Shown here piece by piece: positions 56-5,685 of a stretch of DNA of 5,685 nt. Origin of the DNA: a virus. The notes beneath the pieces were generated by a model. That model saw only the letters and a program-made list of their open reading frames with translations. It made no database searches and had not been told where the DNA came from. How positions within the stretch are numbered: the stretch's first letter is position 1; every line of letters starts with the position of its first letter. Location: IMG/VR virus record IMGVR_UViG_3300045988_000092, positions 1 through 5,685 of that record; one strand, given 5' to 3'. The position numbers were made by a program, and so were the translations under genes.

Positions 56-86
56 TCTACTACTACGTCTACAACAAGTTAATATT

Positions 87-138
87 ATATCGCGCGTGCG
101 CGCGTGCGCGCTATCGCGCGTGTGCGTACGTGCGATAT
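87..138. repeat. GC-rich alternating purine/pyrimidine (CG/TG)n island with long-range dyad symmetry, flanked by ATAT ... ATAT. It can fold into a stem of about 24 bp with a TATC loop in ssDNA and is Z-DNA-prone in dsDNA
   Basis: 91-111 and 115-138 are strictly alternating Py/Pu. Pairing 87-111 with 116-138 gives a near-continuous stem with a few G-T wobbles. The island sits within an otherwise AT-rich intergenic region. Confidence 0.6.
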
Positions 139-151
139 AAGCATCTACTTG

Positions 152-169
152 ATAGACTGAATAGACTGA
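152..169 (+). repeat. Perfect tandem 9-mer ATAGACTGA x2. In addition, the 10-mer TACTTGATAG occurs twice (146-155 and 206-215), the second copy forming the loop of the post-VP4 hairpin
   Basis: Direct reading of the intergenic sequence. Confidence 0.7.
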
Positions 170-189
170 TACATGGAGCCTTTAGGCGA

Positions 190-225
190 CAAAAGCCCAG
201 TACCTTACTTGATAGGTACTGGGCT
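190..225 (-). terminator. Hairpin 12 nt downstream of the VP4 stop (AGCCCAGTACC / GGTACTGGGCT, 11-bp perfect stem, 10-nt loop) followed by TTTTG in gene sense. It is a candidate end-of-operon terminator or a ssDNA structural element
   Basis: Inverted repeat 194-204 and 215-225 read directly. The T-tract is short (3-4 T), so terminator function is uncertain. Confidence 0.35.
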
Positions 226-236
226 AGGTGACACTG

Positions 237-1256
237 CTAGAGCGTTCCTTTCTTCTTCATCTGTTTTTTTATCACTCTTTCTTTGGTCTTTAAGTCTTCT
301 GCGTAGTCTGCTTTTTCATATTTCAGTTTGTTCTGTTCAATTATTGCCTTTTGCCGGTTGCACTTTATTCTCCATAGTCTTTCCGGATTTTCCTCTTCCA
401 TTTTTTTTTCGTAATAGCGTGGTATCTGTGCTTGTTTTCCGTTGGTACACTGAATATAACCTCGCTCCCAAATTTCTTTTTTGTGTTTTTGATAGTATTC
501 GTCTCCCAATCCTGGCTTTAGACTCATGCATGCAAAAGGTTTTTGCTGTCCTAGGTCGTAGTATGTGTTGGCTTTCTTTCCGTCTATCTCGTACATTTTT
601 TTGGTGACGTATCCTGCAACATATCTATATGTTTCTGGAACTGCTTGTGCTATCTGTATTTGTCCCATGCCCCATAGGTCTGCTAGCCATTTGCTGGTAT
701 AGTATCCGTTGTGATGGATTTTATACAGGTTTTTAATGTCTGTTGGTTTCCATCCATATAGTATCATGTGGTAATGTGGTCTTGCTGTTTGTTCTCCATA
801 CTCTCCTGCCACGAAATAGCGTAATTTGCCCTTGTAAGCCTTTCTGACACGTTTTAAAAATTTTTGAATGTCTGGATACAGCAACGTTTGGACGCTTTCT
901 GGGCGCTTCTCTCCTGGCTTCCAGACGTATTGTACTTTTCGCATGATTTCGCCTGTTTTGAGTATCATTCCTGGTACGTGTTCGTCATCATAAGTTAGCG
1001 TAATAAACCACACTTCTTCTTTTGCATAGTTTCGTGCTTCTAATTCTATACGTGTTGTCCAGTCCTCCCTTTGTCTTATTCTGCATCCGATGCATTTCCC
1101 GCATGGTATTAGCATTACCTTTGGATTATACATCAAATCTTCATATTTTAATTTTTTGGCCGTTAACTCAGATAAGCGGGCGAGTGAATATACCCGCCCG
1201 CTTATTTCTTTATTTTCTGGGTTGTACAGCCTTATTAATGGCTTGTAACAACTCAT
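237..1256 (-). CDS. VP4: Microviridae replication initiation protein (VP4/Rep, HUH rolling-circle endonuclease), 339 aa
   Basis: N-terminal Cys cluster CGKCIGCR. Motif I FITLTYD, motif II HYHMILYG (HUH), motif III YVAGYVTKK (compare phiX174 protein A YVAKYVNKK). SD AGGTGA about 9 nt upstream. ATG overlaps the VP2 TGA (ATGA). Confidence 0.9.
   Translation of the reverse strand: MSCYKPLIRLYNPENKEISGRVYSLARLSELTAKKLKYEDLMYNPKVMLIPCGKCIGCRIRQREDWTTRIELEARNYAKEEVWFITLTYDDEHVPGMILKTGEIMRKVQYVWKPGEKRPESVQTLLYPDIQKFLKRVRKAYKGKLRYFVAGEYGEQTARPHYHMILYGWKPTDIKNLYKIHHNGYYTSKWLADLWGMGQIQIAQAVPETYRYVAGYVTKKMYEIDGKKANTYYDLGQQKPFACMSLKPGLGDEYYQKHKKEIWERGYIQCTNGKQAQIPRYYEKKMEEENPERLWRIKCNRQKAIIEQNKLKYEKADYAEDLKTKERVIKKQMKKKGTL
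1172..1205. other. Perfect 11-bp GC-rich inverted repeat (ATAAGCGGGCG / CGCCCGCTTAT) with a 12-nt AT-rich loop, inside the 5' end of the Rep (VP4) coding region
   Basis: The arms 1172-1182 and 1195-1205 are exact reverse complements. They encode I-S-G-R and L-A-R-L using GC-rich codons (GGG, CGG, GCC, CGC) that are atypical for this AT-rich genome. The loop in gene sense is GGTATATTCACT. Confidence 0.6.
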
Positions 1257-2125
1257 CTTAAGTAATCACCTGGCCTTCTTTTTTCTCCGTAGGATCCTGT
1301 TTTGTTCTGAGGTGCTTGATAGTTGTTCTTTTGGTCGCCCTTTTTTTGGTCGCCCTTTTTTGGTACGTTTTTGTCAATGGCTTCGCTGGTGTCGCTTCCA
1401 ATTTCGGTTAGTGTTTTCTGCAGTCCGTATGGGGTCATTTGTGTACTGCTGAGCATTTGCTGCCAACTTTGTGCTGCATTGAACCAGTCACTTTTGCTCC
1501 AACTGTTGCTTTGGTATGCGTTTGGTACAAATCCTCCACTTCTACTTACTCCTAGTGCGCTGCTGCTTGCAAGTCCCATACTTGCCCCGCTGATTGTTCC
1601 TGCGCTTCCACCTGGTGTGCTCGCTCCACCATTTGAGAATGCCAGTATTGGATTAAGTCCGGCTTTTTTCATATCTTCTACGGCTCTTTGATATGCCGTG
1701 CTAGACATGTGTTCTTGCCATTCACGGTTTGCTAGGGCTTCTGCGCTGTTGTAGTTCATGGCAGTGCTGTTTTCGATGTGGTTGTATACGCCTTGCATAA
1801 TTGACTGTAATGTATTGTAACCCATCTGCTTTAGCATACTTTGGCTGTTGTACTTGGCTTGCATGGCACTTTCTTGCCCTTGATATGCATATGCCTGTTT
1901 TAGCCATTCATCAACCTGTTGTACGTTGGTGCTTGATTGACTTCCGCTTTCGGAATGTCCACCGCCTTGCTGTGTGCTTCCGCCGCTGCTTTGGCTGCTG
2001 CCTGTTTGACCCCATCCTCCAAGAGCGCCTCCGATGTTTTTTGCTGCTCCTGCTATTGTTCCTACTGTGTTTGCCACGTTTCCGGCGATGTTGAGTGCTG
2101 TTAATAGTCCTGTTAAGCCTCCCAT
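1253..2125 (-). CDS. VP2: Microviridae minor capsid / DNA pilot protein (VP2-like), 290 aa
   Basis: Hydrophobic N-terminus followed by a Gly/Ser/Gln-rich region. Conserved gokushovirus VP2 core ...AYQRAVEDMKKAGLNPILAF... It sits directly downstream of the major capsid gene. Confidence 0.8.
   Translation of the reverse strand: MGGLTGLLTALNIAGNVANTVGTIAGAAKNIGGALGGWGQTGSSQSSGGSTQQGGGHSESGSQSSTNVQQVDEWLKQAYAYQGQESAMQAKYNSQSMLKQMGYNTLQSIMQGVYNHIENSTAMNYNSAEALANREWQEHMSSTAYQRAVEDMKKAGLNPILAFSNGGASTPGGSAGTISGASMGLASSSALGVSRSGGFVPNAYQSNSWSKSDWFNAAQSWQQMLSSTQMTPYGLQKTLTEIGSDTSEAIDKNVPKKGDQKKGDQKNNYQAPQNKTGSYGEKRRPGDYLR
1333..1362 (-). repeat. In-frame 15-nt tandem duplication in the VP2 C-terminus, giving KKGDQ-KKGDQ, with 14 of 15 nt identical
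   Basis: ggtcgccc followed by a T run, twice, with a period of 15 nt. Confidence 0.75.
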
Positions 2126-2165: not shown

Positions 2166-3866
2166 TTACAGTTTATACAGCCCCGGTACGCTGTACAGCG
2201 GCATACAACGTGTGGTCTTGTTGGCTACGCGGATTGCTCCGAAGAACTGCGGTTCGTTTTGTACGATGAGTGTTCTCGCGATTTCGGTTTTACCTTCTGT
2301 CATCCATTCCTGCGAGAGTGTCGGCACAGTTTCGTAGTTGTCTGCATAGTGCCAGAAATCTAACGTCCCTGTTGCATTGCTTCGCATTAAGCCACTTACC
2401 CGGTTTGGCTTCATTCGGTAGTCAGCCCAGGCTTCTTGATAGCCGAATGTTTCTTCATCGGATGATAAACCTGTTAGCATGATTTCCTTTTTCTTTACTG
2501 GCTGTTCGCCTATATTCGCGAACTGAGGCACATAGTAGTCAAGTCTATCTCTTCTACTCCAGAATCGTTCAAGTCCCTGCTGGTAAGTGCGATTGTGTCT
2601 TACGCACATTACACCAATGACGAATCCATGTTCTTCAAACGATTTTGTAAAGGAACTTTCGTTGATTGGCGTTACTGACATTGCGCCTGTTTCACCGATG
2701 GGTGTACTGTTTTGGTCTTGCTGCCCAGAAGTCTGTACGATTTGGTTCATATTGACATGATAGCGTCCGCCTCCCAGGTATTCCGGCACCTGTACTGTTT
2801 TGTCACTAATTGTGACATTCCACAGAGCTTGTACCTGTTCACGGTAACGGCTGCCACCTCGTGCCATCGTTTCATAGTACTGCTGTACCGCGATTGCGTT
2901 TCGTAGTTCGTTAATGGTGGTCGCGGTTACGCTTCCAAGGTCTGCGTACATCCACCCTCCATCGCCTGTGCTTCCCGTTGCGCCAAATGTTCCGCTGAAT
3001 TCCATTTGTGCTTTTTCGCCTGGTTTGTTGGTTTCTTTCAGATAGGTGAGACTTCCGGCCTTGTTGCTTGTCTGTGTTGACCCGACTACCATGGTTATTG
3101 ACGTTTTTGGGTCATTGTATTCTCCGTTTGACTCTCCCAGTCTGATTGGTGCGTTTCCTGTTAACGGTACGGTCACGTTCGGTCCACGCTGAGCATAGGG
3201 AAGGCAGCTTGAGAAGTAGTCGTGGAAGCGGTTTACAGGTAAGCATTGTCCGCCCGAGATTGCGTTCTGTATAACTTGTTCAAGACTTCCTTTTTCAAGA
3301 CTTCCTTTTTCTTCTACATCGTTGTAGTTGATATTTTCATCGTCTGTTCTGAATGTTGCTGCGTTCTCTACGTTTTCATCTCTGAAGAATTCATTCCAGA
3401 TTTTTACGTATGCTCGTATCGGCAGTGCGTTTATTTCGAAAGTTTTTTTGATTTTTGTTGGCACTCCCATGTAGTCTAAAATTGTTTTTTCTGACGGCTT
3501 CGGCTTGCTTTCATTTCCTTCAACTCTGATTTGTGGTACACTGTATGCTTTGGTAGGCATCCACGGTTTATCTTCTACTTCACCCATGAAATATTTGAAA
3601 TTGTCCCATAGGATACGGTTCGGACAGTAGAAATAATAGAAATCAATGAACGCGTCATCCATGACCGGGTATTTTGGCGTTGTCATTCGGATGATTGCGC
3701 TGGTATCTACTTGGAAGGTATCGCCTGGCAGTACTTCATCTACGAAGAATGGGATAAGTTTACCGCTATCGAATGTGGTTAAAATCGTTTGGTCTCTGTT
3801 GAATCGTGTTCGGCTTGCTTTCATTTCTGGAATTTGCAGAAAGTGCCGTTCGTTGTTTCTATTCAT
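2166..3866 (-). CDS. VP1: Microviridae major capsid protein (VP1 / F-like), 566 aa
   Basis: N-terminal region ...FDSGKLIPFFVDEVLPGDTF... is the characteristic gokushovirus VP1 signature. The length is typical of Gokushovirinae. SD AAGGGAG 13 nt upstream. ATG overlaps the VP3 TGA. Confidence 0.93.
   Translation of the reverse strand: MNRNNERHFLQIPEMKASRTRFNRDQTILTTFDSGKLIPFFVDEVLPGDTFQVDTSAIIRMTTPKYPVMDDAFIDFYYFYCPNRILWDNFKYFMGEVEDKPWMPTKAYSVPQIRVEGNESKPKPSEKTILDYMGVPTKIKKTFEINALPIRAYVKIWNEFFRDENVENAATFRTDDENINYNDVEEKGSLEKGSLEQVIQNAISGGQCLPVNRFHDYFSSCLPYAQRGPNVTVPLTGNAPIRLGESNGEYNDPKTSITMVVGSTQTSNKAGSLTYLKETNKPGEKAQMEFSGTFGATGSTGDGGWMYADLGSVTATTINELRNAIAVQQYYETMARGGSRYREQVQALWNVTISDKTVQVPEYLGGGRYHVNMNQIVQTSGQQDQNSTPIGETGAMSVTPINESSFTKSFEEHGFVIGVMCVRHNRTYQQGLERFWSRRDRLDYYVPQFANIGEQPVKKKEIMLTGLSSDEETFGYQEAWADYRMKPNRVSGLMRSNATGTLDFWHYADNYETVPTLSQEWMTEGKTEIARTLIVQNEPQFFGAIRVANKTTRCMPLYSVPGLYKL
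3281..3310 (-). repeat. In-frame 15-nt perfect tandem duplication in VP1, giving EKGSL-EKGSL
   Basis: caagacttccttttt occurs twice back to back. Confidence 0.8.
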
Positions 3867-4261
3867 TCTTCTGTTTTACTCCCTTCTACTGGTTCTTTTT
3901 TCTGCTCTTTGTTCAGTTCTTCCAGTTCTTTGAGCTTCATCGCGTTAGCTTGTGCTGTTGCTACCATCTGATGATATTCGTGGATGTTCTGCGGAAAATT
4001 GGTGATGTCTACCTCTGTGCCTTCCATAGCGCCTTGTGACAGGCTTTTCATAAATTCCGGGTCGAAACTTGCTTTTCTCACAATGTTTTTGATATCGCAT
4101 TCATCTGCGTAGCTTTCAATCTCTGCTTGAATGTCGATACTTTCGGTTTCTTGCAGGTATTCTTTGCCTTCTTTGTCTTTTGCCCAGACGTATTGTTTTC
4201 GCTCTGTTTCTCCTGGATTTGAAAAGAAGGGCTCGCGCCCTTCTTCGTATCTCTTATTCAT
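3863..4261 (-). CDS. VP3: Putative internal scaffolding protein (VP3-like), acidic, 132 aa
   Basis: Strongly acidic and Glu-rich. Its size and position are consistent with gokushovirus VP3; it lies immediately upstream of VP1 and is translationally coupled to it (ATGA). SD GGGAGGG 8 nt upstream. The functional call rests on composition and synteny, not on a recognised motif. Confidence 0.6.
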   Translation of the reverse strand: MNKRYEEGREPFFSNPGETERKQYVWAKDKEGKEYLQETESIDIQAEIESYADECDIKNIVRKASFDPEFMKSLSQGAMEGTEVDITNFPQNIHEYHQMVATAQANAMKLKELEELNKEQKKEPVEGSKTEE

Positions 4262-4493
4262 TCGGCTTTCCCTCCCATACTTTTTCAGTATCGTTTGTGA
4301 ACGTGCCTACTTCGTCTTCAAAAACTGCCAGTTTAAAGCCGGTATAGTCCTGGGGGCTCTGGCCGATGAAGGTCGTTTTGTCCTTTTCCATCACGTTGCA
4401 CATGCGTGCGAACGTTGCATTGTTTTTGCTTTCTCCTACCCATGTATAGCATTTTGCTACGTTGTCCCAAATTCCATAATAGTTGTGTTTCAT
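4254..4493 (-). CDS. Hypothetical protein, 79 aa
   Basis: SD GAGGAG about 11 nt upstream of the ATG. Its stop overlaps the VP3 start by 8 nt. It matches no family I recognise. It could be a VP5-like accessory protein, but that is speculation. Confidence 0.55.
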   Translation of the reverse strand: MKHNYYGIWDNVAKCYTWVGESKNNATFARMCNVMEKDKTTFIGQSPQDYTGFKLAVFEDEVGTFTNDTEKVWEGKPNE

Positions 4494-4972: not shown

Positions 4973-5362
4973 TTATACCCCCTTTCTGTATGTTTTGGTA
5001 CGCGTGTCAATGTGTACCCATGTGTCGTACACGATGATGCCGCAGCCAGACGGAATGATTTTATTCAGTTTGTTGGCAATTTCTTTTGCGGTCATGCCTT
5101 CAATTCGGATGTCTGCTGCCATTCCTCGCATGTGATATGAGTACTTTGCACCGCCTACCGCTTTATTCCTTGTCGGTGTCCGGTATCCGCTGTTTATGTA
5201 CACTGGTTTTCCGACTTGGTTTCTGAGGATATCCAGAATAGACACCAAATAGCTGTCGATGAATACGACTTGTGAACCATCTTTGCACGCAAATTCTCGC
5301 ACTTTAAAGTGCTGACCTACTTTTTCGTTTGCGTCTGTGTCCATGATATAGCATTTAATCAT
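4973..5362 (-). CDS. Peptidase M15-family peptidoglycan hydrolase (VanY / L-alanoyl-D-glutamate-peptidase-like), 129 aa; candidate lysis enzyme
   Basis: Zn-binding and catalytic signature SGYRTPTRN...GGAKYSYHMRGMAADI...WVHIDTR (SxHxxGxAxD plus a distal His-x-Asp), preceded by F-K-V-R-E-F-A-C-K-D-G as in M15_3 / T5-endolysin-type domains. SD AAGAGG 9 nt upstream. No signal peptide is visible. Confidence 0.85.
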   Translation of the reverse strand: MIKCYIMDTDANEKVGQHFKVREFACKDGSQVVFIDSYLVSILDILRNQVGKPVYINSGYRTPTRNKAVGGAKYSYHMRGMAADIRIEGMTAKEIANKLNKIIPSGCGIIVYDTWVHIDTRTKTYRKGV

Positions 5363-5387: not shown

Positions 5388-5416
5388 ATTTTACCATTTT
5401 TTTTATCGCTTGTCAA
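5388..5416 (-). promoter_or_regulatory. Sigma70-type promoter for the whole minus-strand gene cluster: -35 TTGACA, 17-nt spacer, -10 TAAAAT
   Basis: Minus-strand reading is TTGACA-agcgataaaaaaaatgg-TAAAAT. The -35 is plus 5411-5416 tgtcaa and the -10 is plus 5388-5393 atttta. It lies about 25 nt upstream of the peptidase SD and ATG. Confidence 0.5.
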
Positions 5417-5508
5417 TTGTTTTTTGTTTCGAATGGCGCTTTAGCGCCTTGCCGTATGGAGCGCAGCGGAATGCGGCTTAATCCATTCATTATTAGCGCT
5501 GTGCGCGT

Positions 5509-5621
5509 TTTCAACACTTTCAACACTTTCAACAGGTTTTCCACAAAATGTTGCACAATTGATTTCGTCATTTTGACGAACTTTCAACATTTCAACATTT
5601 TTTCCACAAAGTTTTCAACAG
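5509..5621 (+). repeat. Iteron array of about seven TTTCAAC(A) repeats, including three perfect tandem 9-mers at 5509-5535. Interleaved with these are TTTTCCACA motifs at 5537-5545 and 5600-5608, with a third at 44-52 across the junction; they match the relaxed DnaA-box consensus TTWTNCACA
   Basis: Direct reading gives tttcaacac, tttcaacac, tttcaacag, then ttttccaca, then tttcaacat, ttcaacat, ttttccaca, tttcaacag; ttttcaac and ttttccaca follow in 37-52. Confidence 0.7.
5564..5580. promoter_or_regulatory. Perfect 17-bp palindrome TTCGTCA-TTT-TGACGAA embedded in the iteron array; candidate dimeric protein-binding site
   Basis: The arms 5564-5570 and 5574-5580 are exact reverse complements. Confidence 0.4.
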
Positions 5622-5630
5622 TGTATTTCT

Positions 5631-5685
5631 CTTTTAATTTTCGTTTCATCGTTAAAATTTATTACTTTTCAACTTTTCCACAGTC
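5631..5685. repeat. Second copy of the 55-nt terminal redundancy (equals 1..55)
   Basis: Exact identity with 1..55; an assembly or linearisation artefact of a circular molecule. Confidence 0.95.

Follow-up and report, generated by a model that had tools for sequence, protein, structure and literature searches.

A strand-asymmetric GC-rich dyad beside the origin-like stem-loop of a gokushovirus genome: a possible hairpin signal for complementary-strand synthesis

The question raised by this locus was what a GC-rich island of almost pure CG and TG steps does in the one sizeable non-coding region of a small ssDNA phage genome. Gokushoviruses are among the commonest phages of gut and environmental viromes, and we know of no experimental work in which the start of either of their DNA strands has been worked out. 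The stretch of DNA analysed (5,685 nt, here called the window) was found to be a complete circular genome of 5630 nt, that of a gut gokushovirus, positions 1-55 being identical to positions 5631-5685. The closest public records were human and pig faecal Gokushovirinae (77-85% nucleotide identity). Every gene is on the minus strand of the window and the plus strand is the non-coding strand; the coding strand is the canonical virion strand of the Microviridae. The genes and their promoter were placed as follows.

237-1256, minus strand: VP4/Rep, the HUH Rep replication initiator (PF23343, E = 3e-16)
1253-2125, minus strand: VP2
2166-3866, minus strand: VP1
3863-4261, minus strand: VP3
4254-4493, minus strand: VP5
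4973-5362, minus strand: M15 peptidase
5388-5416, minus strand: strong sigma-70-type promoter, TTGACA-17-TAAAAT with TG

VP4 is the protein expected to act on the origin. The sole large non-coding region (about 500 nt) begins at the VP4 stop codon, crosses the circle junction and reaches as far as the promoter at 5416-5388 (minus strand), which forms the far boundary of a non-transcribed control region of about 430 nt. The GC-rich island, which has the form of a dyad, sits within this non-coding region. Prophage copies were sought with VP4 in 185,579 species genomes and none was found, and an Rfam scan of the whole window at E <= 1 returned two weak unrelated matches, both of them outside the dyad.

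85-140, plus strand: GC-rich dyad (56 nt), arms 85-110 and 115-140, loop 111-114 (CTAT)

From 91 to 134 the plus strand reads cgcgcgtgcgcgcgtgcgcgc-tat-cgcgcgtgtgcgtacgtgcg, in which all steps are CG or TG save one TA and a 3-nt central interruption, with atat flanks at 87-90 and 135-138. No alternating pyrimidine/purine run in the genome is longer than the two found here, at 91-111 (21 nt) and 115-134 (20 nt), and the next measures 14 nt. CpG reaches 14 per 50 nt in the dyad region against about 2.4 per 50 nt genome-wide (269 in 5630 nt), approximately a six-fold difference, and the GC content of the flanks is 29-35%. The initial annotation of this DNA had described an island of about 50 nt, alternating in CG and TG, bracketed by atat and unlike the rest of the genome in composition; the transcription and coordinates of the island were correct, and the run lengths and CpG density confirm its unusual composition. 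Its two halves, which had been called near reverse complements, were returned by a repeat finder as arms of 26 nt each, 81% Watson-Crick, around a 4-nt loop.

A very stable hairpin had also been proposed for the single-stranded form, and fold energies were calculated on both strands. The dyad was the most stable 64-nt fold genome-wide on either strand, lying about 7 sd (plus strand) and about 4.8 sd (coding strand) below the mean. As plus-strand ssDNA it folds into an unbroken 26-pair stem including five G·T pairs, at -26.6 kcal/mol (z = -3.35), and none of 200 dinucleotide shuffles did as well. The coding-strand fold is weaker (-19.0 kcal/mol, z = -0.67; equalled by 47 of 200 shuffles) because the five G·T positions are C·A mismatches there. 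The dyad is thus the strongest hairpin of the genome on both strands, but the long uninterrupted stem exists on the plus strand only, and the coding-strand fold does not surpass composition-matched shuffles.

Conservation was examined downstream of VP4 in four GenBank and 80 IMG/VR relatives (VP4 at least 83% identical), with the VP4-proximal stem-loop and the AACTTGTTGTAG motif as anchors. An alternating GC-rich dyad with a central break of 3-8 nt was present in 69 of the 71 close-relative loci that held both anchors. A further 80 whole genomes, retrieved via a conserved neighbouring motif, were grouped by VP4 identity; the dyad occurred in 38 of 43 genomes at 80-89% identity, in both genomes at 70-79% (2/2), in all eight at 50-59% (8/8), in 5 of 15 at 40-49% and in 2 of 12 at 30-39%. 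A comparable dyad is therefore found at the syntenic site in most close relatives (about 90%), and its range extends to clades with VP4 identity as low as about 45%. Low stability together with the lack of any counterpart downstream of VP4 in relatives, which would have spoken against the initial annotation, was thus not what was observed. No such tract was seen in the reference gokushoviruses Chp2, SpV4 and phiMH2K, and there are sister clades without the dyad, so the element is not universal; it is clade-specific but old within its clade. Some of the apparent absences may be assembly artefacts, since the public contigs L010, L020 and L031 terminate within the dyad and L028 and L043 carry shortened versions, the latter, a close relative, having only a 5-bp hairpin at the site. 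The dyad is a practical trap for assembly and amplification alike. Its loop varies among relatives (CTAT, TTTC, CTTC, TTTG, TCTA and others).

For the analysis of the stem, 61 distinct dyad variants were aligned on an 18-pair consensus helix, giving 1098 pair cells. Standard pairs filled 99.3% of the cells, and double-sided changes were found at 8 of the 18 pairs (41 cells), a number reached by none of 500 shuffles. Slid-register controls were needed because a (CG)n-like sequence still pairs with itself after a shift of two positions; when the register was slid by +/-2, pairing fell to 86-89% and only 10-12 double-change cells were counted. Exchange between C-G and T-A pairs, via a T·G intermediate, was seen at several independent columns. 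An A on the plus strand stood opposite T in about 94% of cases, T making up about 27% of partner positions (from the pair counts), and pairs at the base of the stem, beyond the CG core, covary as well (e.g. TATAT/ATATA versus TATAG/CTATA). Judged from the aligned variants, the dyad stem is under selection for pairing and not for alternation alone; the selection on structure that had been suspected from composition is borne out by these compensatory changes.

The same data bear on the suggestion that the dyad is a functionless by-product, that is, a slippage-prone quasi-palindromic microsatellite at a recombination-prone non-coding spot. Arm length and sequence do vary, with L028 and L043 as shortened extremes, and at least three subtypes have an inversion breakpoint at the dyad edge. 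Similar (CGCA)n tracts are also widespread in other viral contigs; a scan of the viral collection with a specific 20-mer returned mostly unrelated undivided (CGCA)n in large phage contigs, not dyads. A by-product would not, however, be expected to keep the same site across clades of 45%-95% VP4 identity in a size-economical 5.6-kb genome, nor to hold its near-complete pairing (99.3%) by compensatory changes, and a neutral long GC palindrome, being normally unstable, would be lost. We regard this explanation as very improbable.

In duplex form the island had been called a textbook former of Z-DNA or of a cruciform, and the two structures fared differently. For the duplex ALTERNATIVES, conversion of 56 bp into two hairpins was calculated to cost 44.1 kcal/mol before any junction term, against 10.6 kcal/mol for a perfect-palindrome control, the high cost being due to the five mismatches. 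Supercoil relief from a cruciform in a 5.6-kb circle amounts to 37.9 kcal/mol at sigma -0.06. The cruciform was accordingly ruled out on energy (a cost of at least 44 kcal/mol versus about 38 kcal/mol of relief), and the pairing for which the stem is selected must matter in the single-stranded state.

For Z-DNA, a simple energy balance was drawn up with published parameters (PMC3024258). The 21- and 20-bp runs exceed the length of alternating CG and CA/TG steps usually taken for a Z-forming tract (at least about 8-12 bp). The flip of one arm was put at 8.2-10.6 kcal/mol plus 10 kcal/mol for the junctions, or about 18-21 kcal/mol, and the relief at 14.7, 23.2 and 31.7 kcal/mol at sigma -0.03, -0.045 and -0.06, respectively. 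On this model Z-DNA would be feasible only at sigma of about -0.045 or beyond and would not be favoured at -0.03, so that this part of the initial annotation would stand for the more strongly supercoiled state only. The dyad resembles the (CG)n and (CA/TG)n Z-DNA tracts of plasmids in its 20-21-bp CpG-rich pyrimidine/purine runs and in the transition energies (PMC3024258); unlike them, it is centrally interrupted, equal-armed and apparently selected for complementarity.

A Z-DNA or supercoil element of the replicative form, in which the 20-bp tracts would flip and serve as a torsional buffer or sensor by the origin, where nicking requires supercoiled DNA, or as a preferred gyrase site, was considered on this basis. 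Such a role would suit the strictly kept alternation and the finding that nearly all substitutions are transitions; the cost of flipping one arm is also within the relief available at sigma -0.045 and -0.06, and tracts of undivided (CGCGCA)n turn up repeatedly in viral contigs that are not related, often with inverted iterons on either side. Z-DNA, however, needs no loop, equal arms or complementarity, and all variants keep a break of 3-8 nt and near-equal arms. The compensatory pair changes exceed those of the +/-2 slid controls, the transitions preserve pairing via G·T and so make the alternation no independent evidence, and the flip is unfavoured at sigma -0.03. The central break, the equal arms and the covariation are left unexplained by Z-DNA, and we consider such an element unlikely to be the reason for the dyad.

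The two strands of the dyad are not equivalent across the clade. Over the 61 variants the plus-strand helix comprised 865 Watson-Crick, 225 G·T and 8 other cells, and the coding-strand helix 865 Watson-Crick, 4 G·T and 229 C·A cells, so that 79% of coding-strand cells were paired versus 99.3%. The non-coding strand was the more stable in 60 of the 61 variants and in all 55 dyad-bearing whole genomes. Two positions were G·T in 75-82% of variants, and these wobbles must therefore be long-lived. Part of the asymmetry is expected from composition. At four-fold sites the coding strand has 53% A and 11% T, and from such an A-rich, T-poor strand a mutational bias of about five-fold toward these mismatches is expected; counted by alignment columns (17 versus 4) the asymmetry is not above this bias, and counted by cells (225 versus 4) it is far above it. 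A rare-allele mutation spectrum at VP4 four-fold sites of 72 relatives offered too few unsaturated sites (26) to tell mutation bias from selection.

The wobble pattern would also be compatible with an element acting in RNA, either as a terminator or insulator closing the single long operon or as a structure in an antisense transcript. The dyad lies downstream of the last gene, VP4, and plus-sense RNA would turn every mismatch into G·U. The sense transcript, on the other hand, would bear the C·A-mismatched version, and another stem-loop (194-225), followed by TTTTGT on the coding strand, already stands between VP4 and the dyad. The plus strand showed no promoter-like site upstream, and the dyad itself had no match in Rfam. 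An RNA-level role was hence given very little credence. An intrinsic terminator in particular was rejected, as the terminator scan made no call and no T/U run follows the stem on either strand.

The stem-loop between VP4 and the dyad is part of a compact module.

194-234, plus strand: origin-like module, 12-bp stem 194-205/214-225, loop TACTTGAT at 206-213, AG, and GTGACAC at 228-234

On the plus strand it reads AGCCCAGTACCT-TACTTGAT-AGGTACTGGGCT-AG-GTGACAC, with a perfect 12-bp stem, and it ends 2 nt from the VP4 stop codon of the opposite strand. Across all related clades the stem covaries and the loop is invariant, so that this stem-loop is conserved more widely than the dyad. For comparison, about 100 diverse environmental gokushoviruses (101) were gathered using VP1 profiles seeded on Chp2 and phiMH2K; a VP1-profile locus search seeded with the window returned the same clade only. 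Among the 101 other gokushoviruses, 63 had a stem of at least 8 bp with an ACTTG(A/T) loop solely on the coding strand and 3 had one solely on the non-coding strand; with the looser loop CTTG(A/T) the counts were 85 coding versus 2 non-coding. GACAC lay within 14 nt of the stem in 44 of 66 genomes, compared with a background of 0.8%. The coding-strand stem-loop was present in Chp2, SpV4 and phiMH2K also. The element at 194-234 has the parts of this canonical gokushovirus module (a stem of 8-14 bp, a (Y)ACTTG(A/T) loop and TGACAC a few nt further on) but departs from it in placement: approximately 95% of other gokushoviruses carry the module on the coding strand, whereas in the window and in 75 of the 80 extended-clade genomes it is on the strand antisense to the genes.

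Base composition was compared between the two arrangements. Coding-strand AT skew was 0.34 in L424, 0.30 in L469, 0.14 in L471 and 0.36 in the window, canonical genomes ranging from -0.29 to 0.29, and the reversed-module lineages together with the window had a higher skew than the canonical genomes (Mann-Whitney p = 1.2e-4). Cytosine deamination on a packaged antisense strand would add such skew to ordinary coding bias.

The phiX174 origin (CAACTTG^ATATTAATAACACTATAGACCAC) and the module have ACTTGAT in common at the presumed nick, and in both a GAC(C)AC box is located 17-18 nt past the nick. Unlike that of phiX174, the gokushovirus motif sits in the loop of an 8-14-bp stem and, in this clade, on the antisense strand. 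From the phiX174 resemblance alone, the 194-234 module is taken here as the candidate VP4 nick site. No published gokushovirus origin, hairpin, Z-DNA tract or negative-sense microvirus was found in the literature searched.

The centre of the dyad lies 98 nt 5' of the centre of the module stem-loop, on the module strand. In 45 of 65 canonical genomes the best flanking hairpin is likewise 5' of the module, in 30 of these 45 at -50 to -200 nt. The mean 50-nt fold of canonical genomes was -6 to -7.6 kcal/mol at -50 to -200 nt and -2.7 to -4.5 kcal/mol on the 3' side. In the clade of the window, the strongest fold within 300 nt 5' of the module averaged -25.1 kcal/mol in the 80-89% class and -20.4 kcal/mol in the 50-59% class, the strongest 3' fold averaging about -6 kcal/mol. 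Gokushoviruses in general thus carry at least one stable GC-rich hairpin shortly 5' of the origin-like module, on the module strand, and the dyad is the form that this feature takes in the clade of the window.

Other elements adjoin the dyad on either side.

146-172, plus strand: TACTTGATAG (146-155), which repeats the loop 10-mer without structure, then two copies of ATAGACTGA in direct repeat
57-90, minus strand: ATATAATATT-AACTTGTTGTAG-AC-GTAGTAGTAG, directly 3' of the dyad on the coding strand
1-90 joined to 5508-5630 across the circle: invertible iteron block (213 nt) with AACTTGTTGTAG and TTTCAAC/TTCCAC iterons
5497-5508: GCGCTGTGCGCG, a GC-rich mini-palindrome at the base of another hairpin, the second inversion breakpoint

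The 146-172 stretch lies between the dyad and the origin-like stem-loop; each copy of ATAGACTGA holds a CTG, and CAGTCTATTCAGTCTATCAA is kept in most close relatives. In the single-strand fold, 146-160 pairs with 64-80 and lengthens the dyad hairpin to about 97 nt, the second TACTTGATAG copy (146-155) pairing with the AACTTGTTGTAG-bearing motif. That motif, ATATAATATT-AACTTGTTGTAG-nn-GTAGTAGTAG and then TGTTGAAA-type iterons, does not vary down to 37% VP4 identity and is similar to the phiMH2K loop CTACTTGTTGTAAGTAG. Six of 76 close relatives, drawn from three dyad subtypes, and the entire 37% clade carry the 213-nt block in the opposite orientation with respect to the genes. One breakpoint coincides exactly with the 3' edge of the dyad and the other with GCGCTGTGCGCG (5497-5508). 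The dyad thus forms a boundary for recombination and need not adjoin the motif. AACTTGTTGTAG, which is on the coding strand, was considered as a nick site and was downgraded, the block being invertible and the hairpin-loop module being the canonical element.

These neighbours are relevant to the proposal that the dyad is an accessory part of the double-strand origin, acting as a GC clamp or as a VP4-bound hairpin that would confine melting to the adjacent AT-rich stretch and the ACTTG motifs; in a variant of the proposal it would be a pause or termination aid for each rolling-circle round, like the inverted repeat 5' of nic in relaxase oriT. ACTTG motifs flank the dyad symmetrically on opposite strands at a distance of about 12 nt from the stem base (146-155, plus; 69-80, minus) and pair together in the extended fold. 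The dyad is 5-12 nt from AACTTGTTGTAG in most relatives, and GC-rich sequence brackets the phiX174 origin as well. The spacing is not constant, however: a large subclade has a 46-52-nt spacer with another hairpin, and in the 6 of 76 relatives with an inverted motif block the motif is then about 210 nt away. Sister clades carry the same motifs without the dyad, and a cruciform in the duplex would be too costly. An accessory origin function was for these reasons considered improbable.

The explanation that we tentatively prefer, to which we give slightly less than an even chance, is that the dyad acts as a hairpin in single-stranded DNA, on the strand bearing the origin-like stem-loop, and serves the synthesis of the complementary strand. 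VP4 would nick the TACTTG^AT loop at 206-213. The plus strand would then be displaced by rolling-circle synthesis, and the dyad, being situated about 100 nt to the 5' side of the nick, would be among the last sequences to come free. Once free as a single strand, the dyad would snap into its 26-bp stem, resist melting by single-strand-binding protein and provide a fixed double-stranded landmark for host RNA polymerase, primase or a PriA-type primosome. Synthesis of the complementary strand would start there, in the manner of the minus origins of G4, phiX174 and M13 and of the single-strand origins found in rolling-circle plasmids. The nick site, the displaced and packaged strand and the priming role are all putative, and the strand presumed to be displaced is the one with the greater single-strand structure (-26.6 versus -19.0 kcal/mol; 99.3% versus 79% paired), an asymmetry that composition bias could also produce. 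A role in minus-strand synthesis appears reasonable because the dyad adjoins the likely origin, at the position where other gokushoviruses carry hairpins. Should the coding strand prove to be the virion strand, this reading would still hold, with the weaker hairpin of -19 kcal/mol, itself the strongest of the genome.

Among known systems, rolling-circle plasmids have single-strand origins in the form of large hairpins, which work on the displaced strand only, are primed by host RNA polymerase or a primosome and are exchangeable as cassettes (PMC5703833). Such exchange would fit the patchy distribution of the dyad. Like ssoA, ssoU, ssoT and ssoW, the dyad is a large stable non-coding hairpin, and it is situated 5' of the candidate nick, where it would be exposed late. 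Rolling-circle plasmids commonly place their single-strand origins 5' of the nick. The plasmid elements are branched and about 160 nt long, whereas the dyad is an almost pure (CG/TG)n quasi-palindrome of 56 nt, without sequence similarity to them, and does not keep the conserved CS-6 motif that ssoA-type origins carry along with the RSB sequence. CS-6 (TAGCGT/A) was looked for in the loop, and a CS-6-like TAGCG was seen in some variants only; the loop regions read GATAGC, GGTAGC, GAAGC, GAAAC, CAAAC, GTAGAC or TAAT.

The complementary-strand origins of phiX174 (the n' site, PriA), G4 (oriC) and M13/f1 are, like the dyad, stable intergenic hairpins that could avoid being coated by single-strand-binding protein and so mark where priming takes place. 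They differ from it in genome position and in sequence; the phiX174 n' site is defined by PriA binding, and none of the three is an alternating CG tract. The start triplet of E. coli DnaG primase is CTG, and the G4 origin consists of three hairpins with a CTG about 6 nt away. In the window CTG occurs on the plus strand at 157-159 and 167-169, 17 and 27 nt 3' of the dyad stem, an arrangement reminiscent of the G4 start site; these triplets are kept in most of the 80-86% clade, though not in all subtypes.

Intergenic hairpins with compensatory changes have been described in reekeekee- and roodoodooviruses and tentatively taken for negative-strand synthesis signals (PMC9865509). Like the dyad they were found computationally, in other clades and with other sequences; their loop is conserved in one clade, and strand asymmetry, a link to an origin module and alternation were not reported for them (PMC9865509). 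Intergenic hairpins of ssDNA phages as proposed complementary-strand signals are thus of an already known kind (PMC9865509). The (CG/TG)n quasi-palindrome with its strand-specific wobble and the tie to the origin module appear to be new in the literature searched, as does the placement of the module antisense to the genes in a large gut clade.

Several observations count against priming at the dyad. The loops are unconserved, whereas characterised single-strand origins keep loop or stem motifs, and the dyad is absent from sister clades. Priming might also be directed by the neighbouring stem-loop at 194-225, in which the loop is conserved and the stem covaries.

The orientation of these elements raises a further point, namely that the virion strand of this clade may be antisense. 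The TACTTGAT stem-loop, GTGACAC and the 5' GC-rich hairpin are all antisense to the genes. If the stem-loop is the VP4 nick site, it is conceivable, although we would put it somewhat below an even chance, that these phages displace and package the non-coding strand and that the dyad is their complementary-strand origin. The control region can in any event be set out as a testable map, with a nick-site candidate, a candidate complementary-strand signal (the dyad) and an invertible iteron block. If the antisense reading is true, the clade would consist of negative-sense members of a family described as positive-sense, and a polarity that varies within the family would change how these genomes are handled in annotation, in strand-specific viromics and in analyses of mutation bias.

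Besides the dyad, the GC-rich hairpin-forming stretch downstream of the gene for the replication initiator VP4, the following features were mapped in the window.

5508–5630 joined to 1–90, in both orientations among close relatives: 213-nt block with AACTTGTTGTAGnnGTAGTAGTAG and TGTTGAAA iterons
151–172, + strand: direct repeat, two copies of ATAGACTGA, in the stretch that separates the dyad from the origin-like stem-loop
194–234, + strand: stem-loop with an ACTTG(A/T) loop, followed by TGACAC
1172–1205: GC-rich hairpin of 14 bp with 93% complementarity and an energy of about −15 kcal/mol
2135–2155, − strand: intrinsic terminator of textbook form, between VP1 and VP2
5388–5416, − strand: near-consensus sigma-70 promoter with an extended −10, upstream of the peptidase gene

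For the orientation of the 213-nt block, the relevant loci are L003 (positions 1190–1420), L071, L022, L075, L081 and L082, together with the 37% VP4 clade (L088, L091, L104 and others). Inversion was found in at least three independent subtypes, with breakpoints at the edge of the dyad and at GCGCTGTGCGCG (5497–5508).

The dyad acts as a trap in assembly and in amplification. Public contigs ended inside it (L010, L020, L031) or had lost one of its arms (L028, L043), so apparent absences of the dyad are to be read with caution. Relatives had additional GC-rich hairpins, some in the gap that separates the dyad from the stem-loop (e.g. L006, L012, L019, L037), others in the one that separates it from the neighbouring conserved motif (e.g. 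L002, L013, L015). These are unrelated and differ by subclade (e.g. GGGGCTGAC..GTCAGCCCC, GCCCCAATCTTGGGGC, GGGGGTAGGCC..GGCCTACCCCC and CAGCGCT..AGCGCTG). Hairpins appear to accumulate in this region. The direct repeat was kept in most close relatives, and CTG, the start triplet of E. coli primase, is present in both of its copies in the window (+ strand).

Undivided alternating (CGCGCA)n/(CGCA)n tracts of 20–85 nt were also recurrent in unrelated, mostly large viral contigs (L207–L271, e.g. L228, L257, L245, L226, L249, L212 and L237), at a frequency far above chance. Some of these contigs have 30% GC, and the tracts are often flanked by inverted iteron-like repeats, e.g. GTGTCACC...GGTGACAC.

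The longest ORF for VP4 includes, in its 5′ end, the hairpin at 1172–1205. Since VP4 is annotated as shorter in KT264791 (298 aa), with its start past this hairpin, the latter may be a VP2/VP4 intergenic terminator or attenuator. An overlapping Rfam match to Termite-leu was weak (E = 0.008, below threshold). The intrinsic terminator and the sigma-70 promoter both suggest that the host is not a member of the Bacteroidetes.

The coding strand of the window contains 38% A and 18% T, and at four-fold degenerate sites 53% A and 11% T; this bias exceeds that of every one of the 63 canonical gokushoviruses examined. A 144-aa ORF antisense to VP4 (173–607, + strand), starting just past the dyad, gave no match in Pfam and is probably an artefact of the stop-poor, T-rich antisense strand.

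The ACTTG(A/T)-loop/TGACAC module, which is similar to the phiX174 origin, was compared across L085–L164, L366–L475 and L204–L206. It is near-universal in gokushoviruses as a coding-strand element. A location on the non-coding strand is shared by the window clade and three further lineages (L424, L469, L471), which hints that these phages package the antisense strand.
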